A DNA stretch of 64,000 nt from a virus. Shown piece after piece: positions 41,863 to 64,000 of the stretch (positions within the stretch are counted from its first letter, which is position 1; each line of letters opens with the position of its first letter). A model generated the notes under the pieces. It was given only the letters and a program-made list of their open reading frames with translations. It ran no database searches and was not told the origin of the DNA. The translations under genes were made by a program, and so were the position numbers. The stretch is taken from the IMG/VR virus record IMGVR_UViG_3300036399_001571, positions 108,520 to 172,519 of that record. One strand, written 5' to 3'.

Positions 41863-42396
41863 CTAGCCAGCGTCAACAATCATGTGAATCCTATGAGTGG
41901 AGCCATTGTTGTCGACTCTGTGAACCCTGTTGGTGTTGTCTATCACCCAAATCTCCCCTGGTTTTAAATTCTTAGAAATACCACCAACCGTGAATGTGCA
42001 GGAGCTATTTGTGACAATAGGTATGTGTATTCTGTGAGTGTTTCTGGTGACCACCCCCTGGTCTTTATGCGGCTTAATAATCCCTCCAGGGTTCATCCTT
42101 GTCAACATCGAGGACGTTTCTGAAACTTGACCAATGGATTCTCCTGCAATTTTGCATATTTCCATTATGTCCGAACTGAATTGTTCGTAATGTTGGTGCT
42201 TTTCTGGACTGTACTCATTGGACTTTGGAGAATACTTCAACGGGATTGTCTCGGTGTGATAACTGGCTATCCCCCCTGTGTTTTTTCTACCCTTATATTC
42301 ACTCCAATCTAGGTCATTGAAGGATAAAACCTTATTCAGTAGATTCTGAAAGTCTGGGAAAATTCCCACATATCTAAATGCTTCATTTTCTTTCAT
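41863..42396 (-). CDS. aspartyl/asparaginyl beta-hydroxylase-family 2OG-Fe(II) oxygenase
   Basis: PGGIIKPHKD, RIHIPIVTN, GEIWVIDN...H.V.N.G..HRIHMIVD. Confidence 0.85.
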   Translation of the reverse strand: MKENEAFRYVGIFPDFQNLLNKVLSFNDLDWSEYKGRKNTGGIASYHTETIPLKYSPKSNEYSPEKHQHYEQFSSDIMEICKIAGESIGQVSETSSMLTRMNPGGIIKPHKDQGVVTRNTHRIHIPIVTNSSCTFTVGGISKNLKPGEIWVIDNTNRVHRVDNNGSTHRIHMIVDAG

Positions 42397-42472: not shown

Positions 42473-43849
42473 TTACGCTTCTGGAGCTCCGTCGAAGTCA
42501 ATCGAAACGAACGCTTCTGGACGCTTAACAGCGAGAGCAAGTCTCTGTTCTGCAAGAATCACGATTGCGTTGCGCACGAAGAAGTCTGAGTGCTGTTCCG
42601 AAATTCGGATTGAAGCCTGCTCGCGGTCGTACAGCTGTGCAGCAGTACCGAAGGCGCCGACGAGGCCGGTTCCTTCTGTCATTGCTGGAGTGTCGATAAC
42701 TGGCATTCTCCAAACGCGTGGCTCGCCACCCATTGCAACCGAAACTGCGATGAGGTATTGACCCTGCTCGTCCTTCGTCAACTCGATGTCTTCCCAGTCG
42801 TTCGGGTGCAATACAACGCCCGATGGCTCGTAGTAAGCCAAGAACGAGAGTGTTGCGGCACGACGGATTGCATCAGCCTTGGTGTCTGCTACTGGAAGTG
42901 TTGCACCATCTGACCAGGCGTATGTCTGGATGTTTGGTGTGTTCAAAACGCCCAAGAGGTTCTCGCCAGCGCCGTCGCCATTGAGGATTTGGTTGTCTTC
43001 CAACAAACGAAGGCCGTACATCAATTCGTTGTCGATGATTGAACGCAGCTGTGGCTCATCGGCAAGGACGTTGCGGTGTGCAGCTTCCCAGTGTGCCAAT
43101 GTGCGAACAGGAGCCTGCTCACCAACGAATGAGAATGATGACTGTGGCTTCAACGCGAATGCGTTGTTTCCACCGTTACGCTCTGCGATTGTTGATGCCG
43201 AGTTAACACCAGCAGCGTAGCCGTAACCCTCCTGGATAGGAGTGGTGAAACCGAGCTGACGGAAGTACTCAATAACAGCAGCAGTTGTTGTGCGAACTGG
43301 GAACAAGTCACGAACACGCTTTGTGCGCATTGGCTGTGTAATCATCGCATCGCGCTGTACTGAACCAAACGAGCCAAGACGGCTGTTTGTTACGTCAGTG
43401 CCAGGAAGTGCTGAGTAAACGTCCTTCACATTGTATGAACCAGATGTGAACGAAGCCTTTACCTGCCATGGTGCAACCATGTTTGCGCCGTTACGGCCGT
43501 TTGCGAGTGTCTTGAATTCAGCTGAGTCCAAGAACATTTCGCCGATTGACTTGATTTCACGGCTTGAAAGCTGTGCAACTTCTGCACTTGCTGCAGCGAA
43601 TGAACCTGCAACACTTTCTGCTGGCTGTGAAGCCCAAGAATCAACGCTGTTCATTGTCTGCATACCGTCAATGAGGCTCTTGATTTCCTTGATGTCTGAC
43701 ATGTTCTTGTCGAACGCTGTCTTCTGCTCAGGGGTGACGACAACTGTGCCGTCTTCTACACGGAATGAATCCGCAATGGCCTTATTATCGGCCATCTTTC
43801 CACGAAGTGCACCTTGCAGTTCGTTTAATCTTGCATTGTCTTGCGACAT
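42473..43849 (-). CDS. major capsid protein, HK97 fold
   Basis: Coiled-coil delta domain; VRDLFP, TLAHW, EDNQILNGDG...GVLN, LHPNDW, F.RN...ILAEQRL.L.V.RPEAF. Confidence 0.93.
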   Translation of the reverse strand: MSQDNARLNELQGALRGKMADNKAIADSFRVEDGTVVVTPEQKTAFDKNMSDIKEIKSLIDGMQTMNSVDSWASQPAESVAGSFAAASAEVAQLSSREIKSIGEMFLDSAEFKTLANGRNGANMVAPWQVKASFTSGSYNVKDVYSALPGTDVTNSRLGSFGSVQRDAMITQPMRTKRVRDLFPVRTTTAAVIEYFRQLGFTTPIQEGYGYAAGVNSASTIAERNGGNNAFALKPQSSFSFVGEQAPVRTLAHWEAAHRNVLADEPQLRSIIDNELMYGLRLLEDNQILNGDGAGENLLGVLNTPNIQTYAWSDGATLPVADTKADAIRRAATLSFLAYYEPSGVVLHPNDWEDIELTKDEQGQYLIAVSVAMGGEPRVWRMPVIDTPAMTEGTGLVGAFGTAAQLYDREQASIRISEQHSDFFVRNAIVILAEQRLALAVKRPEAFVSIDFDGAPEA

Positions 43850-44001: not shown

Positions 44002-44721
44002 TTAATCTTCTGTTAGTTCTTCTTGGATTGATTTTTTTCTTTTTAGTTTTCCTAGCTCTTCTCGTAAAACTGTTCTGATTACATTTCTTTCTTGCGCAGC
44101 TCTTCCTCTTCGCCCAAGCGAAGTTGTGCCGGCTAAACGGGCGTAATCACTCATGTTTGTGCATGGCATCCAAACTGCCCTGCCAGTTTTGGATATTCTT
44201 CTGCTTATCCCAATACACCCCATTTGACGCGAACGAGCACGAGCTGATTCTGGGTCAGTAAAAACATCTGGGTCGTTGTCTCTAACGTATTGAGGTCCAG
44301 TCATTGCCGCTTTTGCCATGCTCGCACCAAACATGTTCATTGTTGGGCCGCCAGAAACAGTTGAGCCGCTTGATACGGATGAGCCAACGGCTTGGGGTGG
44401 GGCGAACTGATTTGGGCCAGAAGTTATTCCTGGAGCAGAGCCGTTAATCCCCTGTATTGGCCGTTCATTAAGTTTTTCCCAACCATCTCTTTTTTTCTTG
44501 CGTTTCTTACGACCTACTTCTTCTCTTTCTAAACGCCCTTCGAACGATGACTTCTCTTTCCATTTAGAAGTTTCGGCTCTATTGGAAATTCGCTCCAAGG
44601 AATCCATTGAAGCACAAGGCATCCAATTCCCGTCTTCGTCTTTGTGTGCTCCTCTGCATCCAATCATTTCTGCAACACGAAGAGCTTCCATCTTCTTGAC
44701 TAATTCTTTTTGCTTAGCCAT
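44002..44721 (-). CDS. head-region hypothetical protein with two GC...MPC motifs
   Basis: MIGCRGAH...WMPCAS and MGCIGIS...WMPCTN. Confidence 0.7.
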   Translation of the reverse strand: MAKQKELVKKMEALRVAEMIGCRGAHKDEDGNWMPCASMDSLERISNRAETSKWKEKSSFEGRLEREEVGRKKRKKKRDGWEKLNERPIQGINGSAPGITSGPNQFAPPQAVGSSVSSGSTVSGGPTMNMFGASMAKAAMTGPQYVRDNDPDVFTDPESARARSRQMGCIGISRRISKTGRAVWMPCTNMSDYARLAGTTSLGRRGRAAQERNVIRTVLREELGKLKRKKSIQEELTED

Positions 44722-44722
44722 C

Positions 44723-45448
44723 TTAGAATCGCTTCAGTCTTTGCTCTATAGCTTTGCTTATTCTTGTGCCATGGCTTAATTCTTGGTTTTCAGATATTGA
44801 TTTAACTCTTCTCAGCGAGCGGTTGCTCGTGCAGCCAATTTCTGACTTCTCGTCAATAAATCGAGATATCTTTCTTGACATGCCAAATCCTGCTGTTTCT
44901 TGAATTTTCATAGATTCAAAGGATTGTTTGTATTCTGAGCGTTGGTCGATAAATTTTCCAGATTTAGTATCGATTGAGACTTTTTTACTTTTTGCCTCTT
45001 TTATCAAAGAAATCTTTTTAATTTTATTTTTGAAAGATTTTGCTCTGTAGTCGAACTTTGAGAATTCTGATGAATTTTTATCCACTTTCTCTGATTTAGT
45101 CTCAATTTCTGAATTCTTGTTAATTATGGTTCTACCAACAAAAATAGTTTTTGAAGCAAAAGTCTTCTTAATTACCTTTTCGGCAAATTCATTCAATTCT
45201 ATTTTCTTTGACAATGTTTTATCAATAATTGATTTTGCTGCATTATCGCTAACAGACTTGAATGTAGTTGATTCAGTCCATTCTGGAGCTTTTATATCAG
45301 CTTCTGAAGAAACTGTCTTTTGGGCGTGCTCAGCCCAATCCGAACCCATTTCATGGAAACCATAAAAAGACAAAGAATCATCACTTTTCACAACTAGTGC
45401 AAATGGAGTATCTCTGACTACATCTTTAATTACGAGTATTTCAGGCAT
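44723..45448 (-). CDS. Lys/Ser-rich hypothetical protein (241 aa)
   Basis: Start refined to MPEILV after AAGGTGG RBS. Confidence 0.7.
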   Translation of the reverse strand: MPEILVIKDVVRDTPFALVVKSDDSLSFYGFHEMGSDWAEHAQKTVSSEADIKAPEWTESTTFKSVSDNAAKSIIDKTLSKKIELNEFAEKVIKKTFASKTIFVGRTIINKNSEIETKSEKVDKNSSEFSKFDYRAKSFKNKIKKISLIKEAKSKKVSIDTKSGKFIDQRSEYKQSFESMKIQETAGFGMSRKISRFIDEKSEIGCTSNRSLRRVKSISENQELSHGTRISKAIEQRLKRF

Positions 45449-47471
45449 TTGTTCCACCTTTGAGTACTTCAACAATGCTTCTCTTGCTGTTAGAAAGTGT
45501 TTCTAGTCGGTTTTTGTATAAAGTTTCTACTATCGACAAGTGTGTCTTTTCTCCGGCCGAGAGACCATCTTTTTCGAATCTTCTACGTAGCTCATTCATC
45601 TTAAAAGAGCGTGCCCTCTTGAGTAGGGCTTCAATGTGTTTTCTATACGCAACCTGCTGGTCCTGTTTCAAGTTGTTGTAGTACTCGGAGTACCTGGCAC
45701 CGTTTGAACCCTGGTAAAAACCAGCGATGGTCATTTTTGTTCTCTTGGATATTTGAATCTTGTCAAGGTCAACCAACCCAGAGGTCACGTTCTGTGCAAG
45801 CATCGGCACTGCGCCTTCAGGGGTTGTTAATGGGTAAATTGAAGAACTTGGTCTGTCTCTTTGGTCTGTCAAGAAATCAGAAATCATTATCGTAGCAACA
45901 TCTTCTGGCTTGAGGTCCGAGAACTTTACGTCAGGGCTAAATTTTGCGCCCTTTAGCGCTGTTTCGACATCTTCTCGGATATATCTTCTCTTATCAGACG
46001 GCTTGTCAGCAAAGATTACGTCAGGGGATTGTAGGCCAAGATGTTGCTGAACATCTGACGCAAATCTTTCAGCCAAGTGCTGATACTTGTCTGGAGATGA
46101 GTAAAGAAAGTATTTATCTGCGCCAATCGTTAGAAGAGACTGGTTGTTTGCAAGTTTTCTTTCCTGTATAAGCTTGCTGTTCGACAATAGTTTTGGCATG
46201 ATTTCCGCTGAAACCATAGATATCGAGCCACCAGCAGAGATGTGTTCAATTGCAGCTTCAAGTGAGGTTATTTTCTTCCCAGTTTGAGCATTTGATGACG
46301 ACTGTCTCGCAACGGCTGCACTTTCTCCTGCAGGAGCTTTTGGCCTTCTTTTTCCGGAGAAAGCCTCTGTGGCCCAACGAAATTTACCTTTTACTATCTC
46401 GTTTGGATTCTTTAGTCCTATAAAGTTTTCCGAGTATCTAATTCCATCACCCGTTTCGTCTGCAACCATCTTCAGCTTCGATGCAGGGTCGGATGTTGAC
46501 TGCGACTCAATTGCCGTATTGACAGTGCGACCAAGTTTCCTTCTCTCACCAACTGAAAGCTTTCTTGCCTTCTCTAGCGTGATTGTGGAGCCACCAGGCA
46601 AAACATAGACAAGAGACTTAACGCCAGTATTCGAAAGAAGTCCAAGCTCGTCGTTGCCTATGTCATCTGGAGAAAGAGCTGAAAGGATGTATGTTGCGCC
46701 TTCCATGTCTCTGTTATCCGGGATTGCTCTCAAAACCTTTGCAGGGACTACTGGCTCTAAAACAAAACCGTCTCTTCTAACCATTCTTGTAGCCTTGCCG
46801 TTATATCCACCAATTTCTGAAACCATTCCTTTTACTTGTTCAGCAGCAGAACGTGGATTATCAAGAGATACTTTTGGAATCTGTGGCTTGCGTGATTCAA
46901 TCAGATTTCCAGGCAGGTCGCCACCGGTAAGAGGTTTTCCTGTTACGGGCTCTGGTTTTGCTGGTCCGCGTCCTGCGCGTCGAAGAGCAGCAACGAGCAT
47001 CCTTAGTGGTGACGGAATATCAAAAAGTTTTGCTCCGCAAGTTGATAGACGAGAGTCAGTAAATCTTCCACCGTACTGGTAGCCCTCTGGACATCTGTAG
47101 CCACGATTTTGTCCTGGCTTTGAACCACCGACACCACCAGGCTTTCCAGGGGTAAGTGTTCTGTATATAGCAGAACGAACTGGAGAACGAATTGGGTCTG
47201 AGTCTCCGGGTATAGCAAGGCTTCTCAATGTTGAACCAATGCGTGATGCTTTTGTCTGTATCTCTACAGAGTCAAATGCACTCTTTCTGAGTATTCTGTC
47301 CGTGCCATTACGCTTGGATAAAGCCTTGAATGACACTACATTTTCAGAAAGCTTCATTCTTGAGCGCGCAATATTATGCAGATTCTTTGCATCAATATCT
47401 GCAATTACGATACGCGCGACAACTACGGCACGCTCAGGGCAGCATGGCAATGAGCCATCAATTTCACTCAT
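45441..47471 (-). CDS. head-region protein (676 aa) with possible degenerate HipA/PI3K-like C-terminus
   Basis: RCPEGYQYGGRFTD...C motif; AERFASDVQQHLGLQSP and DFLTDQRDR. Confidence 0.65.
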   Translation of the reverse strand: MSEIDGSLPCCPERAVVVARIVIADIDAKNLHNIARSRMKLSENVVSFKALSKRNGTDRILRKSAFDSVEIQTKASRIGSTLRSLAIPGDSDPIRSPVRSAIYRTLTPGKPGGVGGSKPGQNRGYRCPEGYQYGGRFTDSRLSTCGAKLFDIPSPLRMLVAALRRAGRGPAKPEPVTGKPLTGGDLPGNLIESRKPQIPKVSLDNPRSAAEQVKGMVSEIGGYNGKATRMVRRDGFVLEPVVPAKVLRAIPDNRDMEGATYILSALSPDDIGNDELGLLSNTGVKSLVYVLPGGSTITLEKARKLSVGERRKLGRTVNTAIESQSTSDPASKLKMVADETGDGIRYSENFIGLKNPNEIVKGKFRWATEAFSGKRRPKAPAGESAAVARQSSSNAQTGKKITSLEAAIEHISAGGSISMVSAEIMPKLLSNSKLIQERKLANNQSLLTIGADKYFLYSSPDKYQHLAERFASDVQQHLGLQSPDVIFADKPSDKRRYIREDVETALKGAKFSPDVKFSDLKPEDVATIMISDFLTDQRDRPSSSIYPLTTPEGAVPMLAQNVTSGLVDLDKIQISKRTKMTIAGFYQGSNGARYSEYYNNLKQDQQVAYRKHIEALLKRARSFKMNELRRRFEKDGLSAGEKTHLSIVETLYKNRLETLSNSKRSIVEVLKGGTNA

Positions 47472-48129
47472 AATCCCCACCGCAGCATTCTGCAGACTTG
47501 CGACCAGAAGGGATTTCAAACTTTACGGTTTCGCCTTTTTCGTCTTCACCCTCCATTTCCCAGTTATTGTCATCCCTGAGCAATTCTGCAAACTTTGGTT
47601 CCATCTCAATGAAGTCACGCAAAACGCTAAAAGCGTGAAGAATGTCTGATTCGGTTACTACGTCATTTGGCTTTTTGTCATTAGCGCCTTTGAATTCATG
47701 GAAGAAAACATCATCTTCGTAGTACGAGTCATTTAATGACTTCTTTGCAGTTCTCTTTGCGGCGCTGCGGAGATGGCTGGCAAACTCAGTGTTCGTCCAA
47801 TTTCTCTTCTTGAGCTTTCCGCGGCAATTCTTCATGCCCGGATGATGGCATCCCTCGTTTGGCCAAAGACCAGTTGTTTCATGATGTAACCATGCGCAAA
47901 TATTGTTCAATGGGTATAGCTCTGGGTGGTTTGCAAGAATCACTCGGCAACGACGGAATCCGCCTGGTTTGCGCATGATTGGTCGCCAGTAGCGTAAAAG
48001 TCTTTCTAGGTTTCCACGACGAGGGCCGTATCCACGGAGCAGGTCGCCAGTAACCAGCTCTTGAGGGATTATTCCGCCAAGAGGGTCGAGTTTCACTTCG
48101 TTATTTTCGAATTCAGAACTCATTGCCAT
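47464..48129 (-). CDS. actinophage head-region protein (221 aa)
   Basis: LLRYW...GGFRRC...CAWLHHETTGLWP motif. Confidence 0.65.
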   Translation of the reverse strand: MAMSSEFENNEVKLDPLGGIIPQELVTGDLLRGYGPRRGNLERLLRYWRPIMRKPGGFRRCRVILANHPELYPLNNICAWLHHETTGLWPNEGCHHPGMKNCRGKLKKRNWTNTEFASHLRSAAKRTAKKSLNDSYYEDDVFFHEFKGANDKKPNDVVTESDILHAFSVLRDFIEMEPKFAELLRDDNNWEMEGEDEKGETVKFEIPSGRKSAECCGGDYE

Positions 48130-48549: not shown

Positions 48550-51500
48550 TTAGTCGACCATCAAATCTAATTGTCCGCTTTTTCTGATGCTGTCAAGTGT
48601 TTTCTTTAGTTCTGCTTCAACTTCTGCATCGATGTTTCTTTTAATTATCTCATCAACCCTGGTTGTTGGACTGGCTGTTTTGTCGTAAGAGCGAGGGTTC
48701 TCGATGTTTATTCCCTGTGGGTGAGCGAACTTAACATAACCAACTCCCATGCCTTCATACTTCTCTTTAATCTTCTTGGCGGCGCGGTACTCCTTGAGCT
48801 TGACCATGCTTGCCGTATTCAGTGGTTTGCCCCCAGATATTGAATAGAAGTAGGCAACCTCTTCTGGCGTGAATCCAAGTTTCTCAAGTTTTGATGCAAG
48901 CGACCTGTCGTTCACCACATCTGAGATATCTTCTGATTCAGCAATCTTGGCCACCTTTGAATACGGGTAGTGAATTCCCTCAACTTCATTCTTCTTGAAT
49001 CCACCAAGAATCTGAGCCTCAAATGGCTCATGGGAACGAGCCGATGAGTCAACTGACCCAACTGGTGCCATCTTTCCATTTTCATCCATTGACGCATTGA
49101 CGGAAGAAAAGTTCTTATCCATCTTTGCTCCGAGTAGATGAAGCATTGCTTCAGTGTTCTGTTTCTTTGAAGAAATTCCGTCAGCATTCATGATTGCGTC
49201 GGCAATGTCGTCAGGGTCGTTGGAGTTCATCGCTACTGGTCTGTGCGCCGACTGTAGAGCCTCTCCACGCCCATAGGCGGTGCGATTAGACACTTCAGGC
49301 TTAAGGATTACCTCTATTTCTCCGAGTGCAGTAAGACCGTCGCCAACCACGTCATTATCGCCAATCTCAAAGATTGCATCACTTCCGATGTTCCCCTTGC
49401 CAGATGCGGCTATCTGCCTCTTCTTCTCTTCGTTGTGTGAACGATGCACAACATATCCGCTTACTGGTTTTGCAGAGTTTGGGGTTGATTTGCTAATACC
49501 AATTCTGCTGTTGTACTCATCTCTAAATGCATCAGATGAGCGGCCAGCTCTTTTCCCAGAACTGAAAGCAGAATCCCCAAATGGGTCGTATTCTGTTTTT
49601 GCTGGTGTGTAATCGTTCTCATTGTAACCATCAAATGGGTCATCATATTCACTTGATGCTGGTAGTGACTCGGAGCCAAAACGACTACGCAGCTCAGCGA
49701 GGTCTGGTCCATCACTAATACCATCTTCGCCAATACCATCTTCGGTGTTTTTTTTCTTTTTTAGTTTTTTGAATTTCTTTCCAACTTTGTCTCTGGCTGA
49801 ACCGACTATCTCGCCAGCATTTTCCAAAAGTTCAGCCCCCTCACCGCGTATGATGTCACCAAATTCATCAAGCCTCTGCTTGTTCTCATCTGTAACGACT
49901 CGCTCATCAATAAAATCTGAAGCAATAGTCCAAGCGTCTGCAAGCTTGTCCACCACTGGGTCCGGAAGGCCATTTGGTGCGACTCTGTCCACGGCGGACA
50001 TTGCAACATCCATTTGGTTTTGAGTTATCTTCCCTCTTTGAACTGCTTCTTCTAGACCACGCTCGGCAACTTCTCTTCCAGCTCTTCTGGCAACGTCAAC
50101 TGCAAGCGCGGTTGCAAAACCAACAGGACCACCAGCCGCAAGAGCGCCAGCCATATTCACGCCGTACTTAACGCGTTCACGAGTGTCTTCGTCTGCTCCA
50201 GAACGCTTCAGAACTGCGTCCAACACTCTTCCTGTTGCGCGACTGCCAGCAATTCCGGCAACTCTCTGTGTTTTACTTGGCTTGTTCGTGGTTCGACGGC
50301 CAGACGAAAATCTATCGCCTACCATGACCCCTGTTGTCCCAGTAAATTTGTCTGATATGCCAACGCTCTTTTGAGCATTTTTGCTCATTCGCGCTAGTTC
50401 TTGTGGCCACAGTTCAAGTGTTGACGGTCTGCCTAACTGCTCTTCTGTTCCGGAAGCATTCATTTCAATATATGCATGTGGCATATTTGAATGCATTTGA
50501 TAATTAAATCCCTCGCCTTTTGCAATTCTTCTCACGGCCGATTCCGCTCCAGTAGATGAGCTGTATTCTCCGGGTTTAAAGAAATGTTTTGCACCAAGTT
50601 CTTTTAGTGCTGTTCTGACCATTTCATTTGAATCACCGTCTTCTGTTGTTTTTACAACCTGAAAACTACCCTTTGGCATCTTTATTCCGCCACCTGGTTT
50701 AGGTGTTAAGACGGTGTCAACTGGGAAAAGAGAATCTACGCTGTCTGGATTATTTTCCAATACATCTCTAAGTCGAACAACTATCACATTCGAACCTGGT
50801 TTTTGTTGGCGAGCAATATGACCACCAGCCATATGGTTGAGCGCAAAGTGTATAGTGTGTCTTTGGACGGTTACCTTTTCTCCTGAATCAGAGGTCAATT
50901 CATAGGCGCTAAGTGGTTTAAGTATTATGTTCCCGTCAGCGTCCAGTGGTGGGTCGTACTGAGTTTCGTGAACCAAGTACAAATCATCCACACCAATCTT
51001 GTCCAGACCCTCTTTCCGTTCTTGCAAAAGGTCGTCCTCAGAGAAAGATATTCCTTCAATAGATTTTTCTCTTTCTTCAGCAATAAGCTTCAAACCAATT
51101 TCAGAAAGCCTGTCGAACTCTTTTGCTGCGTCATCATCACCACGAACAGACGCATAAAGCAATGCGTCAACATTTGTTGACCTTCCAGGACTTCCTCCTT
51201 CACTGAGGTGCGCGGCGCGGGCAGCTACCCACTTCTCAGCAAGTTCCTGTCCTTTATCACTTGTTCTATCCAGACCGGTTATGGCGTAAGGATTTATCGG
51301 CACATTTTTTATCTCAGTGTCTGACTCCATTTCAAAATCATTAGTCGGACCACCGAATACGACAGACTCCCCTCCAATGTCGTATACATCAAATGCCTTC
51401 CTTTCTTCTCCGAATCGTCCTTCCTTTTTTGCAAATCCTTGAGTTGGAGATTTTTTAAGGTCTCCAGGTTTTAGCGTTCTCTCTATTGCCCCAGATGAAA

Positions 51501-54500
51501 GTTTTTCTGGTTTTTCAGAAATTTCTTTTCCTCTTTTTACTCCAAGCTCATCCTCGTCTTGAAAAGTTTCGGCTCGTTCAATTTTTCTGTATATATTTGC
51601 TCCAGACGACAGTTTTGGAGCTGTGCGCCTTGTTCTTGGGTTTAATCTTCTCTCAAGTCTGCGACCAATTGGGCCACTTTCAAGAACGATATCGTCTGTC
51701 TCAGTTGGCAAGAATTCGCCATCGTCAGCAAATTTTGTAAGTTGATTCTCTGTCATTCTTACGCGTGGACGCTTGTCTATCCCTGCGTGAAATTCGACCG
51801 CTGCATCTTCGATATCTTTAAGAATTGCTTCTACTGATTTTCTGGCAACAACATCAGCTACTGCCGGGTCTAATGATTCCCTCGACATGTCGTTCATTAC
51901 TTCTTTTGGACTCTCGCCAGCCATGACGCGCTTGATATCTTCAAACGTCATATTTGCCCTAGTGGCTCTTACGACTTTTCTTTCTTCGCGCGTCTGTGGG
52001 ATGCCAAGAACCTCACTTCCCGTAGTTGGGTCTAATGCTGCACCTGCTGAAGTCTTGTATGGTGCGCGCTTTTTAGTTCCAGGTACATGGTCAGGGTCGA
52101 ATTCAGGTGGCTGTGGAAGATTTGCAATTATTTCTCCACGCTTTGCAAGTTCGTCGTCAATAGACTTGAGGGTTGCCCTATCTGTTCCCTGCCAACCTTT
52201 TCTATCATTTGCATAGTCTGGGTTAAGGAGCCGTCTGTAAACATCTGCTCTTCGATTAACCAGCTCATCAACGTCCATGCGGAATACTGTTGTCAGCCGC
52301 GGTCTTCCGGTTATTGGGTCGACCGGGTCTGGTTTGATGTCGGCTTCTGCTGGTTGGACGAGTGGGACCCTCGCGATAGACGTCTCGTATGGGGACCTTT
52401 CTAAAGTTCCAGGAATGTAGGGATAGTCTCGCGGTGGTGTCTTTGGAAGATTTGCGACTATCTCACCACGATAGGCTAATGTTTTATCCACTTCGGCAAT
52501 TAGGCCATCATAGTCATATGGGTTGTCATCTCTATTTCTAAAGTCCGGGTCAAGCATTGCTTTGTACAGCCGAGCTCTATAATTAAGCAGTTCTTCTACG
52601 TTCAAAAGATATATTGAACTTAAATCAAACTCTTTGCCAGTTCTAGCTTTATACATGTCTCTGGCATCTTTAATATCAGCTTCTGCTGGTTGAACCAGTG
52701 GGGTCTTACCAATTTCGGCTATGTAGTCTTCGGACGGTGGCTCACCGAAAGAACCACCAGCGCTTATTACTTGACGTTTAACTTCTACGTTCTTATCTTC
52801 AATTTCAACTTCACGTTTTGGTCGTGATGGTGTAGAAGAAAGACCATTCTCTCTTCTTTGCGCAACGTACTTATTAGCAACTCTGTCAATTTTCTTTTTT
52901 GTCCCCTTTGCGTGCTGTCCAGCACCAGGACCCTCTTCGCCAATCGAGGAAGAGACTCTGTCCAAGACGTCGACGACATTGTCCTGTTCTTGGACACGCA
53001 GAACGATTGTCCCATCAGGCCTTACGTCGACAACTTTCATTTTTCCTGGAGGAAGAACAAGGGCTCCTTCTTCTCCAAGTTCAGTCTCGTTTGTCCTGAA
53101 CAGTCCTTTATCACCTTTTGAAACCTGGACTATTACGCGAGTCTTTTCCTTGCCAGCACGAGTAATTACATCTCCATCAGCATCACGTGCCTCACCTGGT
53201 TTGTGTGGTGATTCATCTGTAATGATTCGTCCGCTTACAAAACTCTGATTATCAAAGTATTCGCTTACATCCTTGAATCCGCTATCTGTTACACCAAAAT
53301 AAATCTCTGCTTCAATTTCTAGGTCATCAGGGATTGAAGACTCGTCCATTGCCTCCATTGCTGGAATAAGAACTTTCTCGATTTGGTCTTCGAGTGATGC
53401 TGTTTCGCTTTCTGGAGATAGGTCGCCAGCGCTTCTTTGTGCTCTTCTGTAACGTCGATTTATATTCTTTACCGCAGAAACATTCCCGTCAGGGTCAACA
53501 AGGTTTCCGATGTCAGTGAGTTCTGGGTCGCCTAGTCGCTCTACTGCAATAGCCTGTTCTTCAGTCATTGCTAAAGATTCGTCTCTTTGAATCTTCTTCG
53601 CGTAACTAGCGCCAGCTTTATCTGTCTTGACTTTCTTGGTTTTCTTTAGCGCCTGTTGCCTTGGTGGGTTTACGATTTCATCTATTCTTGTATCAAGTTC
53701 ACGTCTTTGCTTTGCCCAAACTTTTGCGTCATCAGAGCCTTCAAGTTTTGACTTAAATATTGCTCTCAACATCTTCTTGTCTTCAAGCAGGACTGATTTA
53801 TCGTCGGCGGAGAGTCCTGGCTCCTTCAGGGATATTTCGATATCAGCAAGCTTCTGTACAAACTCATCTTCCGTCATATCTTCGGCTTGCTGTTGCAGAT
53901 TCTTTATCTCTTGCTGGCGAGAACGCGCAGCCATTTCTTTTGGTCTAAGGTTCCCTTCTGAGAACATCTTTTCGCGAACTGATTCGCGCATCTTTTTAAC
54001 GTCGCTGCGCCGTCTGTCTTTGTCTTCGCTGCTAAATCTTTCAGCCCATTTCTTTTCTATCAAAGCAATCTTTGCGTTGTTTTCTTTGATTTTTCTATTT
54101 AAATTCTTGAACGCAGGAGAATCCTTGCTTTCGCCAGTTGCCTCGAGATTGTCAAATGCATCGTTGTAGGCTTCCCTGTTATATTCGAGACCGGCAAGGG
54201 CGTCGATAAAATCGCCATTTGTTGTAGAAGAATCCTGTGACCATTCTTCAATTAGCGACAGCTCTTTCTTGTGTGCTACTTCAAGTCGCTCTCGCACTTC
54301 TGCAATACTGTTTCCAGATAGTTCTGGGTCTGGACCAAGGTTCTCGTAGTAACGAGCCTCAATTTCTCGAAGACCATCTGCATCAGACCTTCTTCTAATG
54401 TCAATGTACCTGCCGTCAGATACGTCATCCATCCACTCAAGCGCAGCGTCAATGTCGTCACCGTAGATGAGACCAAGGTCCCTGAGAGCCCAAAGTTCTG

Positions 54501-56448
54501 CAGCAGCCTCTAGAGCCCAATGCTCTGCTCCGTACTCATCATTGAAATACATTTTTGGATACTCTCCAGCGAGAAATCCGACTACATCCGTTCTGGATAA
54601 CGCATTTTTAAGCGACTCAAGGTCAATCCCATCGCCAGCCTTTGCCATAAGACTCATCACCATTCCGCTAGTGAGGTCTCTAATATTCTCCACCCTTACA
54701 GGCTCGCCCTTGTCGTTGAGGACAGTAATGAAACCGTTGGTTCTAATCTGTCGTTCTGCTTCTCGGTTGAAAGCCTGCATTTGAATAGTGTGGGCAATCT
54801 CGTGCTTCATAATATGTCGCGCAAATGCTCGTTCTTCAACCATTGCCGCAAGCTGCTTTGAATGCCCGTCAACGGTAACCAAGAAGTCAGTTAAAGCAGT
54901 TGCTCTTTCTGAATCGGTTTTACCACCAACAAAATCAATCCTCATTCTTTCGCCTGGAGCAAGACTTGGTATTAATGCTTCCTGATTATTCATTATCTCG
55001 GGAATATCAACATATATAACGCTCATCACGCGTTTGCTGTCTGGCGATGTGTACCCACCAGTAGATGCTTCGTCCATGCGTGGGTCGTCAGGACTTTTAA
55101 CTTGAAAATCTATACGTGCAATAGTTCTCATATGTTCTGGGTCAGCAATGAATGAGTCAAGAGCCGATTCAAGTAGAGCTCTTTCGGTTGTGTACCAGCG
55201 CTCTGTGTCTGCTGCAATCAAGCTCTTTTGACGCTCTGGAGTTAGGCCTGAAAAGCCCGGAACGTGCGCAAGTCTTGCTTTTACTATCTTGTCAATGTCC
55301 TCTGCGGATAGTCTTGTGCTTGTATCTATCGTCCATGCACCGCTGTCTCTCAGCTTCTGGAAAACCTCAAATACGTCGTCGTTTGTTTTTATCTTTTCAT
55401 CTGTTCTGATTACCCCAAGCGAGTCCATCAGGCTTGCGATGTTTATGTCCTGCTGAGCAAGCTTGTCTTGAGCGCGAATCATTCCATCAACAAATACCCT
55501 GCTATTTCTGTCGCTGAGGCTCGCTTCACGCCACTTTTTGATGTTCTTGATTCTTTTGCCGTTTTCATCACGCCATACGGTTCTACCGATTCCCGGTATT
55601 GCTCCGTTATCAAGCCATGATAGAAACTCAAAAAGTTTTTTTGTTGTGTGTTTTACACCAGTTTCTTTGCTGACATCAATCCCACTTGCCATCCTTTTAG
55701 CAAAGTCGAATATCTCTGATGCTGAAATTCCGAAACAGTTTGTTCCTGCATTGTCGGTGAACTGGTTTGCCGCAGGTGTACCTGGTGGGCATCTAAACTT
55801 TCCATTTTCATCAACAATGATTCCAAATGCGCTGGCAGCCCTAGCAATTAGAGACCTTCCTCTTTGCCCAATCGTTCTGCCTGGAAGCCTTTTTTCACTG
55901 TAGCCAGAAGGGTTGACAGTCTTTTCTCCGTTAAGACTAAATGGGTCAAGAGTTTGTTCTGATTCTTCGATTATCTCATCAGTTTTTTGGTTGACCTTAT
56001 ATTTTCTTATTCGTAGTTTTGGTTTTGCTGCGAGGATTTTTGCATACTCGTCAGCTGAAACAGAACGTGGCTCATCGACCCATCCAAAGTTTGGTTTCTT
56101 TACTGCAGTATTCCGCAATTTAACTGATGGGAAAAGATTGAGGATTTTGCCTTCTTCCCACTTTTGACCTGGAAGATAGTTGTACCCGTTTAGACGTTCA
56201 ACCATTCCAGGCGTTCCGCCTTTATTGGTCCTCTTTTTCCCGTCGGTGTCTTTGTATGTCTCGTTACCTGTTGCGCCATCAAGCGCCTTTACAGACAGCC
56301 CGGCGTTTAGCGTTGGCCTTGTTATTGATTCAGTTACAGCCTTCTTGAACGCAATTGCTGCGTCGTTGAGGTCTCGTCTGCCAGCGAGCGGTGATACAAG
56401 CCTCTCGGATGTGATTGTACGTGTTTTATAGAACGGCTTACCCGTCAT
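48550..56448 (-). CDS. giant multidomain protein (~2632 aa): zincin HExxH, ART-like segments, internal repeat
   Basis: HEIAH at 54790-54804; V.KGDKG...EEGALVLPPG ART-like strand; C-terminal LGEIEVILKPEV..RTAY/EAQILGG; start refined to MTGKPFY after GAAAGG RBS. Confidence 0.8.
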   Translation of the reverse strand: MTGKPFYKTRTITSERLVSPLAGRRDLNDAAIAFKKAVTESITRPTLNAGLSVKALDGATGNETYKDTDGKKRTNKGGTPGMVERLNGYNYLPGQKWEEGKILNLFPSVKLRNTAVKKPNFGWVDEPRSVSADEYAKILAAKPKLRIRKYKVNQKTDEIIEESEQTLDPFSLNGEKTVNPSGYSEKRLPGRTIGQRGRSLIARAASAFGIIVDENGKFRCPPGTPAANQFTDNAGTNCFGISASEIFDFAKRMASGIDVSKETGVKHTTKKLFEFLSWLDNGAIPGIGRTVWRDENGKRIKNIKKWREASLSDRNSRVFVDGMIRAQDKLAQQDINIASLMDSLGVIRTDEKIKTNDDVFEVFQKLRDSGAWTIDTSTRLSAEDIDKIVKARLAHVPGFSGLTPERQKSLIAADTERWYTTERALLESALDSFIADPEHMRTIARIDFQVKSPDDPRMDEASTGGYTSPDSKRVMSVIYVDIPEIMNNQEALIPSLAPGERMRIDFVGGKTDSERATALTDFLVTVDGHSKQLAAMVEERAFARHIMKHEIAHTIQMQAFNREAERQIRTNGFITVLNDKGEPVRVENIRDLTSGMVMSLMAKAGDGIDLESLKNALSRTDVVGFLAGEYPKMYFNDEYGAEHWALEAAAELWALRDLGLIYGDDIDAALEWMDDVSDGRYIDIRRRSDADGLREIEARYYENLGPDPELSGNSIAEVRERLEVAHKKELSLIEEWSQDSSTTNGDFIDALAGLEYNREAYNDAFDNLEATGESKDSPAFKNLNRKIKENNAKIALIEKKWAERFSSEDKDRRRSDVKKMRESVREKMFSEGNLRPKEMAARSRQQEIKNLQQQAEDMTEDEFVQKLADIEISLKEPGLSADDKSVLLEDKKMLRAIFKSKLEGSDDAKVWAKQRRELDTRIDEIVNPPRQQALKKTKKVKTDKAGASYAKKIQRDESLAMTEEQAIAVERLGDPELTDIGNLVDPDGNVSAVKNINRRYRRAQRSAGDLSPESETASLEDQIEKVLIPAMEAMDESSIPDDLEIEAEIYFGVTDSGFKDVSEYFDNQSFVSGRIITDESPHKPGEARDADGDVITRAGKEKTRVIVQVSKGDKGLFRTNETELGEEGALVLPPGKMKVVDVRPDGTIVLRVQEQDNVVDVLDRVSSSIGEEGPGAGQHAKGTKKKIDRVANKYVAQRRENGLSSTPSRPKREVEIEDKNVEVKRQVISAGGSFGEPPSEDYIAEIGKTPLVQPAEADIKDARDMYKARTGKEFDLSSIYLLNVEELLNYRARLYKAMLDPDFRNRDDNPYDYDGLIAEVDKTLAYRGEIVANLPKTPPRDYPYIPGTLERSPYETSIARVPLVQPAEADIKPDPVDPITGRPRLTTVFRMDVDELVNRRADVYRRLLNPDYANDRKGWQGTDRATLKSIDDELAKRGEIIANLPQPPEFDPDHVPGTKKRAPYKTSAGAALDPTTGSEVLGIPQTREERKVVRATRANMTFEDIKRVMAGESPKEVMNDMSRESLDPAVADVVARKSVEAILKDIEDAAVEFHAGIDKRPRVRMTENQLTKFADDGEFLPTETDDIVLESGPIGRRLERRLNPRTRRTAPKLSSGANIYRKIERAETFQDEDELGVKRGKEISEKPEKLSSGAIERTLKPGDLKKSPTQGFAKKEGRFGEERKAFDVYDIGGESVVFGGPTNDFEMESDTEIKNVPINPYAITGLDRTSDKGQELAEKWVAARAAHLSEGGSPGRSTNVDALLYASVRGDDDAAKEFDRLSEIGLKLIAEEREKSIEGISFSEDDLLQERKEGLDKIGVDDLYLVHETQYDPPLDADGNIILKPLSAYELTSDSGEKVTVQRHTIHFALNHMAGGHIARQQKPGSNVIVVRLRDVLENNPDSVDSLFPVDTVLTPKPGGGIKMPKGSFQVVKTTEDGDSNEMVRTALKELGAKHFFKPGEYSSSTGAESAVRRIAKGEGFNYQMHSNMPHAYIEMNASGTEEQLGRPSTLELWPQELARMSKNAQKSVGISDKFTGTTGVMVGDRFSSGRRTTNKPSKTQRVAGIAGSRATGRVLDAVLKRSGADEDTRERVKYGVNMAGALAAGGPVGFATALAVDVARRAGREVAERGLEEAVQRGKITQNQMDVAMSAVDRVAPNGLPDPVVDKLADAWTIASDFIDERVVTDENKQRLDEFGDIIRGEGAELLENAGEIVGSARDKVGKKFKKLKKKKNTEDGIGEDGISDGPDLAELRSRFGSESLPASSEYDDPFDGYNENDYTPAKTEYDPFGDSAFSSGKRAGRSSDAFRDEYNSRIGISKSTPNSAKPVSGYVVHRSHNEEKKRQIAASGKGNIGSDAIFEIGDNDVVGDGLTALGEIEVILKPEVSNRTAYGRGEALQSAHRPVAMNSNDPDDIADAIMNADGISSKKQNTEAMLHLLGAKMDKNFSSVNASMDENGKMAPVGSVDSSARSHEPFEAQILGGFKKNEVEGIHYPYSKVAKIAESEDISDVVNDRSLASKLEKLGFTPEEVAYFYSISGGKPLNTASMVKLKEYRAAKKIKEKYEGMGVGYVKFAHPQGINIENPRSYDKTASPTTRVDEIIKRNIDAEVEAELKKTLDSIRKSGQLDLMVD

Positions 56449-56464
56449 GGCGGGCCGCCCTTTC

Positions 56465-57913
56465 TTAGATTGTGTCAGTTTCTGCTTCGAGCAGCTGGAA
56501 TTCAACAAGGGACTTCATGAAATCTCCATCAAGAGTTTCATCTTCCTTCTTGCTCATTCCTTCGCCACCGGCAACCCAGCCTGCTGGGATTAAGTTTTCT
56601 TTGCCGAGTTCGCGAGCGCGCTTGAGAATGTGTCGCTTTGCAGCTTCTTTATCCTTTGCGCGACCAAATGCTTGGATTGCATTTCTGAGGTCAGACTCGT
56701 TCGAAATTGGGTATGAACCATCTGGAAGCGCGTTTCCTTCTTTGGCCATCGAATCACGCTGTTCTTCTGTGAATGCGCGCTTCAACGCAATTTCTGCTGC
56801 TTCAGCTTCAATCTCTTCTGCTTCTTCTGGTTCGTACTTGTCGTAACCAAGAACTTCGCCATCAAGAGCAACGAATACATCGTATGACTTTCCGTCAAAT
56901 CCTTCGATTTCAACAGCGTATGAGTCGATGCCTTCGAAGTTGTCTGGCTCAACAGCAACTACATGACCGTCAATTGACTTGACTGCGATTTCAGCTGCAT
57001 CGGTGAAGCTAATCAAATTGAGTTCATCAATTGCTGTCTTCTGTTCAAACACGCTTTCATCGAGCTTGTGCCAGCCCATAACTTCTGCAGAAGTTCCGTC
57101 GATGAATACTTCGACTGCCTTGCCATCCTTGCCCTGAACATCAATGACGAACATGTCAGCATCTGGTGAGTAACCTGAATCGATTACTTTTCCGTCGAAC
57201 ATTTCTTCAGCCATCCCCTCAACACTCAAGAGGCCTGGCATTCCTTTTTCTGCGATACATCCGCCTGGGCAGTTGTCGCAAACAGAAGTTACAGCAGAGT
57301 AAGACTTACGCTCAATTGCGCAGATGTAATCATGTTCGCCAAGCTCATCTGACTTCATTCCCATTGTCGCCATGCGGCGCTTGCGGAATTTTTCCATCAT
57401 GATATTTTGCTTCTCGGCTTCCGCCATGTCCTCTTCATCCTCGGAGTCCATGTCGTCCTCCATCGAGCCTTTTTCTTCTTCGGACATTTCTTCTTCGTCG
57501 TCCTCTTCGGACTCCATGTCCTCTTCTTCTTCGTCCACCATCTCTTCTTCATCGCCTTTTTTCTTAAACTTCTGCATGGCGGTATTGACTTTTTCCCCGC
57601 CATCCATCATGTCTTCTTCTTCCATGTCATCCTCTTCGGACTCCATGTCTTCTTCCATGCCCATACCCTTCATTGGCTTCTTCTTTGGCATCATGCCGTA
57701 CATCTTTTGCATGTCCTCTTCGGTCATGTCTTCATCAGCGATGTCAAGGTCTGTTGCCGGTACCATCTTCATCTCTACTGGCATAGCGCCACATTTGCCG
57801 CACACCTTTGCTCCTGGAGTGAAACCGCACGCAGATGCATCAGCTCCTTTGGCGCACTTGAGCACAGCCCCTTCGCTGTCAATACTCACTGTTGCCTTGT
57901 CGTCGTAAGCCAT
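56465..57913 (-). CDS. acidic protein with two PepSY-like domains and a C-terminal PDGSYPI domain
   Basis: Met/Glu/Asp-rich linker; two AE...GxV...Y/F.V.....DG....V..DG domains; ALPDGSYPI...DL.NAIQAFGR...HI.KRA..LG. Confidence 0.7.
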   Translation of the reverse strand: MAYDDKATVSIDSEGAVLKCAKGADASACGFTPGAKVCGKCGAMPVEMKMVPATDLDIADEDMTEEDMQKMYGMMPKKKPMKGMGMEEDMESEEDDMEEEDMMDGGEKVNTAMQKFKKKGDEEEMVDEEEEDMESEEDDEEEMSEEEKGSMEDDMDSEDEEDMAEAEKQNIMMEKFRKRRMATMGMKSDELGEHDYICAIERKSYSAVTSVCDNCPGGCIAEKGMPGLLSVEGMAEEMFDGKVIDSGYSPDADMFVIDVQGKDGKAVEVFIDGTSAEVMGWHKLDESVFEQKTAIDELNLISFTDAAEIAVKSIDGHVVAVEPDNFEGIDSYAVEIEGFDGKSYDVFVALDGEVLGYDKYEPEEAEEIEAEAAEIALKRAFTEEQRDSMAKEGNALPDGSYPISNESDLRNAIQAFGRAKDKEAAKRHILKRARELGKENLIPAGWVAGGEGMSKKEDETLDGDFMKSLVEFQLLEAETDTI

Positions 57914-58050
57914 AAAATAGAGCTCCTTGCGCCTAATGGTATGCAGAAGGCTAAATAGCCAACTGTTTATTAAATTATTTGTTTGTAAAAGTATAACCTA
58001 CCATAGCGCCGCTATGGGAAGTATTAATAAAACGCTTTTCTAATTATCTA

Positions 58051-61000
58051 TTAACGTCTTCTTTGTGAGTTGTCGTGAAGCTGAAGAAGTTTTGTCCATT
58101 GAGTTGGAGACAAGAATCCTTTGGCTTTGAATTGAGAAACAAGGCTTTGAGCAAATCCACTCCATTTGGCATTTTCTGCCCAGCCCATTATTTCTTTTTG
58201 CATTCTTGGGGTTATGTTTTCTGGGGCTCCGTTGTTTTCTCGCCCGGAAGAGAGTTTTGTAACTGCTTCCTGACCAGAATTGGTTATTCTGCGAGCGGCT
58301 CTTCTTCCACTGCTCATAGAACCTCCACCCTTGACTGAGTCAACGGTTTCGCTTAAGTCGTACTTCTTGTTGAGTCTGTCAACTATTTCCTGAACTTCTT
58401 CATCAGAGTAACGAAGCGCTTTTCCAACACGAGGGCTGAATTTTGGCTGCTTGCCTTGTTCAAAGGTCTTTAGACGGCTGATTATCTTTGCCGCACCAAG
58501 CACCTCATCGATATCGTCCCACTTAACCTTTTTGCCACTTCTTTCAACGGCGTCAACAACGTTTCTCCAGAGCGAGAATTGGGGAATTGAGTTGTCAAAC
58601 TTGGTGCCGTCTTCACCGAATACTTCGCCAGCGCTTGGGATTATGCCTTGATTAACAAGTTGTTCAACTATTCCTGTTGGGACGCCTTCTTGTTTCCATT
58701 TTTTGAGCTGTATTGGTGTCGGCGTGAACGTCACTCCGTCAACTTCAAACGTCAGGGCTTCAGATAGTTCTGCATCTGACTCGACGCCAAGTGAATCTGA
58801 AAGCGCGGAAACAGAGAATCCGCCCTTGGAAATTTCTTGTGCAACGGTTTGCTCAGTCTCAACCATGTCTGCAGGGGACATGAGTCCAGCCATGTAGATT
58901 CCCTCGTCAAGGAAGTCATCATATTGCTCACGAGTGAGCTGGTTTCCGTCCTTGTCGTACCAGTACGGCTTAGCACCAAAGCCCCAAATTCCATCAATTA
59001 TGTCGCTTGTCTGGAAAGGGTTTGAACTGTCAGAGAATGCTCTGTCAATCAAGGCGTAAGCATCAGCTTCGGAAATGCCTGCTCCTTCTTTGAACATCTT
59101 CTCTGCTTCTATCTCGCTTATACCGAGGTAATCTGCAATTTGTTCTTTGCTCAATGGCTTGCCGTTTTCGTCTTTCAGAATTTGCTGCAGCTTCCTGGCG
59201 TCAAGCATCCACTTACCATCTGGAGACCTGTCGTTATTTTCTGAAGTTTTTCCAAACTTTATTTTGACATCAGCTGCCAACTCTCGGCCAACCTTGTTTC
59301 TTTGCAATTCACCAGGCATCCTGAGTCTTCCGGAACTGAATTTTTCAGTGCCGAATTCGTCTTTGCTTGGTCCAGGTCGCTTCTTGCCCGGAATTGTTGC
59401 TGCTCTCTGTCTTACGCCATCAGCAAACGCCTGTCTGTCGGCATCTGACATTGGTCGTCGTTTTGAACCCTGTGTTCTTCTGTTTCTTCCAGAGCTAAGT
59501 CCTGGAGCATCTCCTGGCTCCAGGAAGTCGGCTACATCGCCTTCAACCATGTCGAAGTTAGAGAGGTTGCTAGGTGAGAAAATGTCTTCAGGAAGACCGC
59601 CCTTGCTCTCTCTGTTTAGTGATACTCCGCTTTCCTCGAAAGACTCACCTATCCCAAAGAGGTCGCTTAGCTCTCTCTCTAGCCTGTTGATTGCACCGTA
59701 GTACATGTCGCTGAGTTTTGCAGCAAAATCTTCCGGCTTTGTTGTGTTGTTGATTGAGTCAACCAAGTCTTCAATTTCATTTATTTGACTCTGCAGTGAG
59801 GAGCGAATGAACGAATCGTCGATTGCCTCGATATCTTCAAGTACTCCTTGGATTTCCTGAGCATCAAATCTCATCGAATCAACGGCATCAGCGGCATCCC
59901 CGTCAGCATCGTCTATATGCTTTTGCATTGCTGACTCGAAGTCAACCTTGCCGCCATCTCTCCAGCTGTTTCTGTACGAATTTTCTAGAAGGCCTATCTT
60001 TTCGCGCAAATCATCGGTTTGCTGATTCAGGAGTGCAAGATTCTCTACATGGTCTTCCAGCTGTGATTCGATGTCATATATTGCTGAATCAAGTCTGTCA
60101 ATAAATTCCATATCATCATCTGAAATTTGTCCAGTCAAATCATCGATGCTTGGTGTACTTTGCTTTGTGATTTTCTTACCATCAAGAGCTGCGCGGATGT
60201 ATTCATCCCTCGTAGCAACTAAGTCATCGATTGCGTCAATAGCTTTTTTATGGTCTTCTAGAGCAATCCTTCCACGTCCACCATTTGGAAGGAAGCCAAT
60301 TTTCCCATCAAGAGCATCCTGTGTTACTGGATTGTTGAACTGCCCGCTCTTTTCAAACTCGGACTTGATGTCTTCTGGTGACCTTCCAGAACTCAGGCGT
60401 CCACCGCCAGGAATCCTGCTAGAAACCAAACTTCTCGTTCTTCTTCCAGAAGAGAAAGACGTTCCTTGAGGGACTCCAGGTTGTGTTGGATTGATTGGGG
60501 CAACTGCGCCGTCAATCAAGCCCTCAATCTTGTGGAGACTGAAACTTCTATACTGACCCGATTCCTCATCAAGTCCTATGAAGTATATTCCTCCGCCCTT
60601 CTTGGTCATCATTCCGGTTGGATAAACCATTCGTGGCTTGCCGTTGTAAGTAAATGAGATGACCTCACCGTTTCTGCGTATGGAATCAAAGTCATACTTT
60701 TCAACAGGAACCGCAGGCAAGTTTGCCGCGATGTGCCTTGAGTTTGAGCCAGCCTCATCCGTTCTCTTGAGAGCGTCTGTGACTAAGCCAATTTCCTCAG
60801 CAGGAGTTTCGTCGTATCTAGAGCGAACCCCGGATGAAAGTCTGCTGTTTTCTTTCATCAATTCAGCCTGGATATCGCTAGCTTCGTCTGCCCAGTCTTC
60901 TGCGCTCCAGTCAAGGCGTGATTCATCTATCTGCGCCATCATCCGGACATATTCCTGTCTGTCTGCGCGCTCTCTTGAAGCTCTCTTGTAATTTTCGTAC

Positions 61001-64000: not shown

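Follow-up and report, generated by a model that had tools for sequence, protein, structure and literature searches.

Polyvalent proteins are giant multi-domain conflict proteins that combine ArdC-N and MPTase domains and are encoded among late or virion genes; they are predicted to enter the host together with the DNA and to be split into units, mainly by the MPTase (Iyer et al. 2017, PMC5512222). Their assemblin-like peptidases are always C-terminal, and no junction signal has been described for them (PMC5512222). Here, we analyze the last 64 kb (the window: 64,000 nucleotides, positions 108,520 to 172,519) of IMGVR_UViG_3300036399_001571, a single 172,519-bp phage contig of an uncultured phage from IMG/VR. 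Two giant proteins encoded in the window, which we call A and B, are punctuated by a short motif, [LFM]-S-S-G. The system differs from the polyvalent proteins of Iyer et al. in that a Peptidase_S78 (S78) domain is N-terminal, a strict tetrapeptide occurs at nearly every joint, modules are exchanged at this tetrapeptide, and the MPTase is dispensable in relatives.

Prohead proteases provide a second point of comparison, notably T4 gp21 (L/I-x-E), phiKZ gp175, and SPN3US gp245 (both A-x-E) (PMC10052503, PMC5694885). The head proteases of SPN3US, phiKZ, and T4 use one short motif for cutting the major capsid protein (MCP), the portal, and ejection proteins (PMC10052503). The likeness to the present phage would lie in a short shared motif and in a cargo that exits with the DNA. 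However, in those phages the processing, demonstrated by mass spectrometry, consists mostly in the removal of N-terminal propeptides from separate proteins, whereas here there are up to 16 internal junctions in a protease-fused chain, and the motif is different.

The herpesvirus assemblin is an N-terminal protease that cleaves itself from its precursor at the R and M sites (V/L/I-x-A↓S). It resembles our case in being an N-terminal assemblin-fold protease on a longer capsid-internal chain, with short sites that have a hydrophobic P3 and small P1/P1' residues. Yet, the assemblin precursor has two sites and a scaffold as cargo, not a string of unrelated effectors, and homology of specificity can only be taken as an analogy. 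Short junction codes are also used by picornavirus 3C, by adenovirus adenain ((M/I/L)xGx↓G), and by pS273R of African swine fever virus (GG↓x). The logic is alike, with a single translation product that bears short junction signals and a protease associated with the virion, but the proteases and hosts are unrelated. The present case joins the polyvalent and the head-processing ideas, and adds to them the N-terminal S78 fusion, the strict separator, the exchange of modules, and the existence of two motif dialects. The papers searched describe neither an LSSG-type junction nor a polyvalent protein with a prohead protease fused at its N-terminus, and for tailed phages they report no such organisation.

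The junction motif and its surroundings

The SSG tripeptides of both proteins occur in a very narrow context. All 11 copies in A come after L, F, or M, and 10 of them stand before R or K; in B, the four copies are preceded by L or F, and two then have R or K. From amino acid composition one expects ~1.2 SSG in A and ~1.0 in B, and ~0.02 [LFM]SSG[RK] in either protein. Across 20,000 shuffles, the number of [LFM]SSG never exceeded 4, against 11 observed in A. The density is 5.5 per 1000 aa in A and 0.17 per 1000 aa in the remaining phage proteome (8 in 45,866 residues). This ~30-fold enrichment bears out a preliminary description of the window, made from its letters and open reading frames, which had pointed to the motif and proposed this very comparison; the 15 sites that it listed are all present, each position falling inside the corresponding 15-nt motif. 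The complete 3190-aa polyprotein of a near-identical IMG/VR contig (L084, see below) has 16 [LFM]SSG, for 0.21 expected, and shows no enrichment of the near-variants TSG, STG, SAG, ASG, [IV]SSG, and LSS followed by a residue other than G.

The constraint is on the protein. Serines of the different copies are encoded by TCT, TCC, TCG, TCA, AGC, and AGT, and Leu and Gly are likewise specified by more than one codon. Since both AGY and TCN serine codons are employed, selection acts on the peptide and not on the DNA, in line with what had been proposed. Among 309 non-redundant instances in relatives, position -1 is L in 69%, F in 22%, and M in 3% of the cases, R or K is found at -2 in 54%, and R, K, or A at +1 in 58%. 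G, S, D, R, K, and P abound in the flanks of these instances.

Compared with random positions, the flanks of the motif are significantly richer in polar and poorer in hydrophobic residues. We modelled residues 362-1060 of A with AlphaFold2 (AF2), using an alignment of 16 sequences (mean predicted local distance difference test score, pLDDT, of 71). The model has three folded units. Three of the four motifs that it covers lie in segments with pLDDT below 50, and the fourth ends a 25-residue unstructured stretch, just ahead of the first ArdC helix. The middle unit (aa 539-815) matches full-length ArdC (PDB 6I89) in sequence (E 1e-42) and in fold (TMt 0.75, E 1.5e-18), and Pfam recognizes ArdC-N (E 3.7e-26) and MPTase (E 1.6e-42) within it. 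Residues 8-283 of the PDB ArdC map onto a stretch beginning 6 residues past a motif, and the HExxH is invariant in the alignment of the module (H370/E371/H374). The ArdC of plasmid R388 (PDB 6I89/6SNA) and the module of A thus have sequence, fold, and HExxH in common, but the former is a free plasmid protein whereas the latter is one internal module of a phage polyprotein. The bracketing of recognizable domains by motifs, already noticed in the preliminary description, holds for the sigma-70 region 4 (r4) domain (sites at 370 and 533), for ArdC-N and MPTase (533 and 853), and for WYL (1055 and 1183).

The protease-led chain and its relatives

Protein A runs off the end of the contig. The first 1292 nt of the contig (L001:1-1292) and the last 1277 nt (window 62724-64000) are 81% identical, and the similarity stops exactly at both ends. 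We read this imperfect overlap as a sign that the genome is circular or terminally redundant, and that the assembly came round through two strain variants within the polyprotein gene, which is hypervariable. This gene is also where many IMG/VR contigs of relatives break. A is 99% identical to residues 1209-3190 of a single 3190-aa open reading frame (ORF) in L084, and the ORF at the start of our contig (Z, L001:2-5062, minus strand) aligns end to end with residues 1-1633 of the same ORF (79.6% identity). In a first BLAST, Z and the L084 ORF seemed to diverge after residue 875; this was dropped, as other settings align both end to end, and we claim no module replacement there.

By these alignments, A is the C-terminal 1982 aa of a polyprotein of ~3200 residues with 16 junction motifs and an S78 protease at its N-terminus. 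Hence, what had been described as a protein of more than 1980 aa is a real ORF of 1982 aa, but only the C-terminal part of the ~3200-aa ORF. Two irregular copies of the motif can be understood from the relatives: the variant LSSR near 63875 reads LSSG at the same position both in the other contig-end copy and in L084, and the variant LGSG near 62455 is a true [LF]SSG in L089, L090, and L103. As for B, reported earlier as 2630 aa, it is indeed a giant with four motifs, and its start is most likely the ATG at 56448, which gives 2632 aa.

The S78 domain occupies residues 34-184 of the L084 ORF (PF04586, 39.1 bits for a cut-off of 21; phrog_80, E 2e-25). Its WGHN and WSIGY motifs, which may hold the counterpart of the catalytic His/Ser dyad of HK97, are conserved in 72-74 of 75 relatives, and S78 is present in every lineage examined. 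The protease-led gene directly follows the portal gene, with the large terminase gene beyond, and lies between the portal and MCP genes. Conflict-type domains (S78, sigma r4, ArdC-N, MPTase, and WYL) thus stand together in one 3190-aa ORF, which gives it the domain make-up of the polyvalent proteins; the polyproteins of relatives add UvrD, NUDIX, DnaJ, Zeta toxin, and GNAT to this repertoire.

A run of 10-11 A is found in the protease module at codon 560 (L001:3397-3407, minus strand), ~100 aa ahead of the first junction. About half of the sublineages conserve the run, and in every case the +1A and -1A frames both reach a stop within 0-6 codons. Slippage there would yield a short protease of ~565 aa in addition to the long form that carries the cargo.

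We searched IMG/VR with the MCP and the portal as anchors, which gave more than 400 relatives each, and kept 160 loci. Protease-led polyproteins (2500-3300 aa or more) hold 3-16 motifs, mostly at least 8, and nearly every SSG follows L, F, or M. We then divided 29 long polyproteins at their motifs and grouped the segments by mutual coverage of at least 70%. The pieces form modules of constant length whose position, neighbours, number, and presence differ from phage to phage across the 29 polyproteins. The ArdC module, for example, is 9th in L084, 2nd or 3rd in L142 and L145, and last in L106 and L132, and down to 34% identity it always has [LF]SSG at its borders, with the end of the protein in place of a trailing motif when the module comes last. 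In this the motif behaves as a separator and not as a tag carried by each module. B has a large conserved N-terminal body followed by shuffled C-terminal modules, and among its homologs the modules are rearranged at the motif in the same way. In addition, 29% of the ends of BLAST high-scoring segment pairs fall within 15 aa of a motif, compared with 12% for random positions, although these counts are phylogenetically non-independent and partly reflect linker divergence. The exchange of domains at SSG boundaries in homologs, suggested earlier as a check, is therefore what we find: modules were moved, lost, or swapped at motif-delimited boundaries.

Residues 853-1982 of A gave 31 matches among 1.8 billion representatives, nearly all to giants of the same family or their fragments, and no informative stand-alone homolog. 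For B, there was no match in Pfam, PHROGs, NCBIfam, PDB sequences, or by tblastn against GenBank phages; an Atlas feature search with its residues 1-1633 reached a score of just 0.85 on few features in common and was set aside. In the Gordonia phage Chidiebere, whose MCP is 48% identical to ours, the motif was found neither in the MCP, nor in the protease, nor in the neighbouring head genes, which makes it specific to the present phage family.

Two polyproteins of relatives are interrupted close to a junction. In L129, a single in-frame stop (L129:17119-17121) lies 8 residues ahead of a junction. In L156, a frameshift comes immediately behind LSSGRNRKKG (L156:19638-19650), and the sequence continues into an ORF holding the MPTase, so that we ruled out L156 as a complete polyprotein devoid of MPTase. 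Both interruptions could be either assembly errors or natural breaks near junctions.

A sister lineage uses another motif. L061, L065, L066, and L071, which are more distantly related, lack LSSG, and have upstream of the MCP gene a giant gene with 9-12 copies of I-[ST]-G-x-M per 3200 aa, where ~1 is expected. These copies also delimit shuffled modules, and domains of the NUDIX, DnaJ, Zeta-toxin, and GNAT types lie between them. In the complete genome G002, which belongs to this lineage, the protease is a separate ORF of 831 aa, and the polyprotein (G002:C1:61201-72291, 3697 aa) starts with a region (aa 23-108) that is 48% identical to residues 134-219 of g239, the protein encoded directly upstream of the MCP in the window. 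Judging from these comparisons, the cargo strings are attached to different head-module proteins in the two lineages, the protease in one and a g239-like domain in the other. A further lineage (L058-L060) has few copies of either motif. The two dialects in sister lineages offer a natural system to study the co-evolution of reader and site.

Proposed cleavage in the head and competing explanations

We favour, by a modest measure, the explanation that [LFM]-S-S-G, usually with R, K, S, or G before it and R, K, or A after it, is the signal separating the modules of capsid-packaged cargo polyproteins, and that these junctions are cut by the S78 prohead protease, which would release packaged effectors. 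More precisely, the protease module would carry the whole chain into the procapsid and, during head maturation, cut every junction, most probably near S↓G. With cleavage behind the second Ser, P3 would be L, F, or M and P1 a small residue, by analogy with T4 (L/I-x-E↓), SPN3US (A-x-E↓S; PMC10052503), and assemblin. Some 17 separate proteins would be freed, including the ArdC anti-restriction protein, the sigma-r4-like DNA binder, the WYL module, and many unknowns, and would leave the head with the DNA at infection. The junctions would double as seams for the exchange of modules between phages, and B would be a second polyprotein from the same row of head genes. A more general picture is also conceivable, though we hold it with distinctly less assurance: a family of uncultured phages of ~150-170 kb with a lineage-specific junction code, in which the capsid-maturation protease unpacks up to ~17 proteins per chain in the head and the A-run sets the ratio of short to long forms.

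The preliminary description had imagined beads on a string: effectors packaged in the head as one polyprotein and separated at SSG sites. At the level of architecture and evolution this reading is well supported, as the enrichment and strictness of the motif, the selection on the protein, the location in linkers, the exchange of modules, the fusion to the protease, and the head-module context are all directly observed. The fact that the polyprotein begins with an S78 protease and sits between the portal and MCP genes also strengthens the idea of packaging in the head. As a candidate reader, S78 occurs in all lineages examined, and in the present one it stands in cis. That the chains are packaged and cut, by which enzyme, and at which bond, is what we infer. 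The MCP provides a weak link to the motif. It has an LSSR (aa 93-96) 1-4 residues before the point where the alignment starts with MCPs that lack this N-terminal region, and about 60 of 80 relatives retain the site in the form L-[ST]-S-[RHS].

Several observations weigh against cleavage by the prohead protease. The L[ST]S[RHS] of the MCP breaks the strict SSG rule and could match by chance (post hoc p ~0.02), and the Gordonia relatives of the MCP lack the motif. The MCP of the sister lineage does not carry the motif of its own lineage either: when we looked for covariation between the MCP boundary and the dialect, we found no copy of I[ST]GxM in this MCP, and only one of the three stand-alone protease ORFs of the lineage carries copies. 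The protease domains associated with the two dialects are ~75-80% identical (by eye), with 14 discriminating positions between lineages, which is little change for a switch in specificity. In addition, a chain of 350 kDa at a protease-like copy number would fill much of the capsid volume, a difficulty that the slippery A-run may ease. Finally, the head module encodes another possible reader of a Ser-Ser motif, the conserved kinase-like protein g692.

The first ~200 residues of g692 are disordered and include an invariant box, RCPEGYQYGGRFTDSRLSTCG. Residues ~390-672 adopt in the AF2 model (pLDDT 80-93 over the domain) an atypical protein-kinase-like fold. Foldseek matched it to CtkA (E 1.4e-5), and VIA gave Z 14.6 to the CotH kinase (5JDA, 232 residues, root-mean-square deviation 3.5), 14.4 to CtkA, and 12.8 to HipA and PI4KIIa, the top 50 rows being all kinases; PI4KII and Fam20 are also among the closest folds. 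Throughout the family the protein retains certain Asp, Arg, and Asn residues without exception, and SDFLTDQRxRP and AQN are kept. Sequence libraries and a profile search of PDB sequences revealed no kinase family, which only the fold search matched, and an Atlas search was uninformative.

The motif could accordingly be a site of phosphorylation, or of another modification of serine, in the linkers, written by g692 on a chain that may be cut or not, and serving for example to neutralise basic linkers in the DNA-filled head or to switch effectors on. This alternative, raised in the preliminary description, is kept alive by the kinase-like fold predicted for g692 and by the conservation of this head-module protein, with its invariant Asp, Arg, and Asn, throughout the family. 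The motif itself has two serines, with R or K at -3 from the second in 54% of the instances, and the sister motif accepts S or T at the hydroxyl position. Nevertheless, we regard it as unlikely and rank it below cleavage. A kinase would not be expected to leave just one motif at each junction and next to none elsewhere, other disordered stretches included, nor a last module without trailing motif, and in the LSSG lineage the site is strictly Ser-Ser, with no Thr. Moreover, g692 is found with both dialects (37% identity) without obvious covariation, and its putative kinase activity is predicted from the fold, its sequence matching no kinase. An uncut motif is, in our view, a little less probable again. 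It could be a docking, packaging, or ejection signal, or a conserved linker cassette travelling with the modules, as suggested by its position in exposed linkers, by the recombination of modules at or near it, and by the precedent of the N4 virion RNA polymerase and TraC1, polyvalent proteins that are delivered whole (PMC5512222). Codon diversity speaks against a recombination site at the DNA level, the strictness of four residues amid flanks diverged beyond recognition implies a specific protein reader, and n modules with ~n-1 motifs are not what one expects of a docking tag.

If the junctions are cut, the cutter might be another enzyme than S78. A carries its own zincin, the MPTase-PolyVal of the ArdC module, with an invariant HExxH, and autoprocessing by the MPTase has been proposed for polyvalent proteins (Iyer et al. 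2017, PMC5512222), so this enzyme could act on the junctions in cis or in trans, as the preliminary description had envisaged for internal HExxH domains. We consider this improbable as a general mechanism, as the complete related genomes G002 and G011 retain junction motifs while no MPTase was found in them. The same applies to the 48-kb contig G007 of the LSSG lineage (portal locus L117 and MCP locus L044), whose polyprotein has 8 motifs and where we found no MPTase, and to the complete polyprotein of L115, which lacks it. The unit made of ArdC and MPTase is one more mobile module, and B has none. If a host protease cut the junctions once the chains are injected, it would be understandable that the polyprotein motif and the MCP site match so poorly. 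This option has no direct support, two motif dialects coexist within one phage family of similar genomes, and we give it the smallest chance of all.

Under the more general picture of a junction code (Phi-S-S-G in one lineage, I-[ST]-G-x-M in another), tailed phages would have polyprotein processing with a plug-and-play grammar of modules. The processing of polyvalent proteins was predicted in 2017 without a defined signal; a countable motif gives exact predicted termini and substrates for protease reporters. It also provides an objective division of phage 'dark matter', unannotated over thousands of residues, into ~30 modules, many of them probably anti-defence or take-over effectors, each of which can be expressed and screened separately. 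The seams furthermore reveal how phages swap effector cassettes.

Coordinates and neighbouring genes

The head genes form a row on the minus strand in the order A, C, B, g144, g221, g692, g250, g239, and HK97-type MCP. Their positions, and those of the motifs and domains, are listed in the table.

Table. Features of the window discussed in the text (positions in the window, all on the minus strand)
Feature	Position	Residues	Remarks
ORF A	58051..63999 (-)	1982 aa	Runs off the end of the window and contig
LSSR, variant, in A	63871..63882 (-)	40-43
LSSGR in A	63166..63180 (-)	274-278
LSSGK in A	62881..62895 (-)	369-373	pLDDT <50 in AF2 model
Sigma-70 region 4 / helix-turn-helix module	62518..62628 (-)	458-494 of A	Pfam PF04545, E 6.6e-9
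LGSG, decayed junction, in A	62455..62466 (-)	512-515	Low-pLDDT linker
LSSGK in A	62392..62406 (-)	532-536	Directly ahead of ArdC module
ArdC module	61585..62385 (-)	539-657 (ArdC-N) and 683-805 (MPTase-PolyVal zincin) of A	Pfam
LSSGR in A	61432..61446 (-)	852-856	Past ArdC/MPTase module; pLDDT <50
LSSGV in A	60826..60840 (-)	1054-1058
WYL-like module	60520..60675 (-)	1109-1160 of A	Pfam PF13280, 20.6 bits, just under the 21.8 cut-off
FSSGR in A	60442..60456 (-)	1182-1186
LSSGR in A	60382..60396 (-)	1202-1206	20 aa beyond preceding FSSGR
LSSGR in A	59485..59499 (-)	1501-1505
FSSGR in A	59326..59340 (-)	1554-1558
MSSGR in A	58303..58317 (-)	1895-1899
LSSGR in A	58240..58254 (-)	1916-1920
Gene C	56465..57913 (-)	482 aa	Directly after the polyprotein in relatives too; no junction motif
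ORF B	48550..56448 (-)	2632 aa from ATG 56448	Open frame 48550-56508 (2652 aa)
LSSGA in B	51598..51612 (-)	1633-1637 of the 2652-aa frame
LSSGA in B	51487..51501 (-)
FSSGR in B	50296..50310 (-)
FSSGK in B	49552..49566 (-)
g692	45441..47519 (-)		Head-module protein conserved across the family
g239	44002..44721 (-)		DUF3721 x2; directly upstream of MCP
HK97-type MCP	42473..43849 (-)		N-terminal delta-like region of ~97 aa; phrog_10, E 2.4e-58; tblastn against phages
LSSR in MCP	43562..43573 (-)	93-96

Two genes lie just past the MCP gene on the same strand. The one directly after it encodes a cupin resembling Asp/Asn beta-hydroxylases (window 41863-42396, minus strand; PF05118, E 6.8e-15), and is accompanied by a gene for a DUF6321 protein (window 39856-41850, minus strand). 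This pair hints at the modification of virion proteins. Away from the head row, a 1494-aa ORF without family match (L171:629-5110, plus strand; genome 20629-25110) has two motifs in a junction context, GKFSSGRSD and PGFSSGRTG, and may be a third, small polyprotein.

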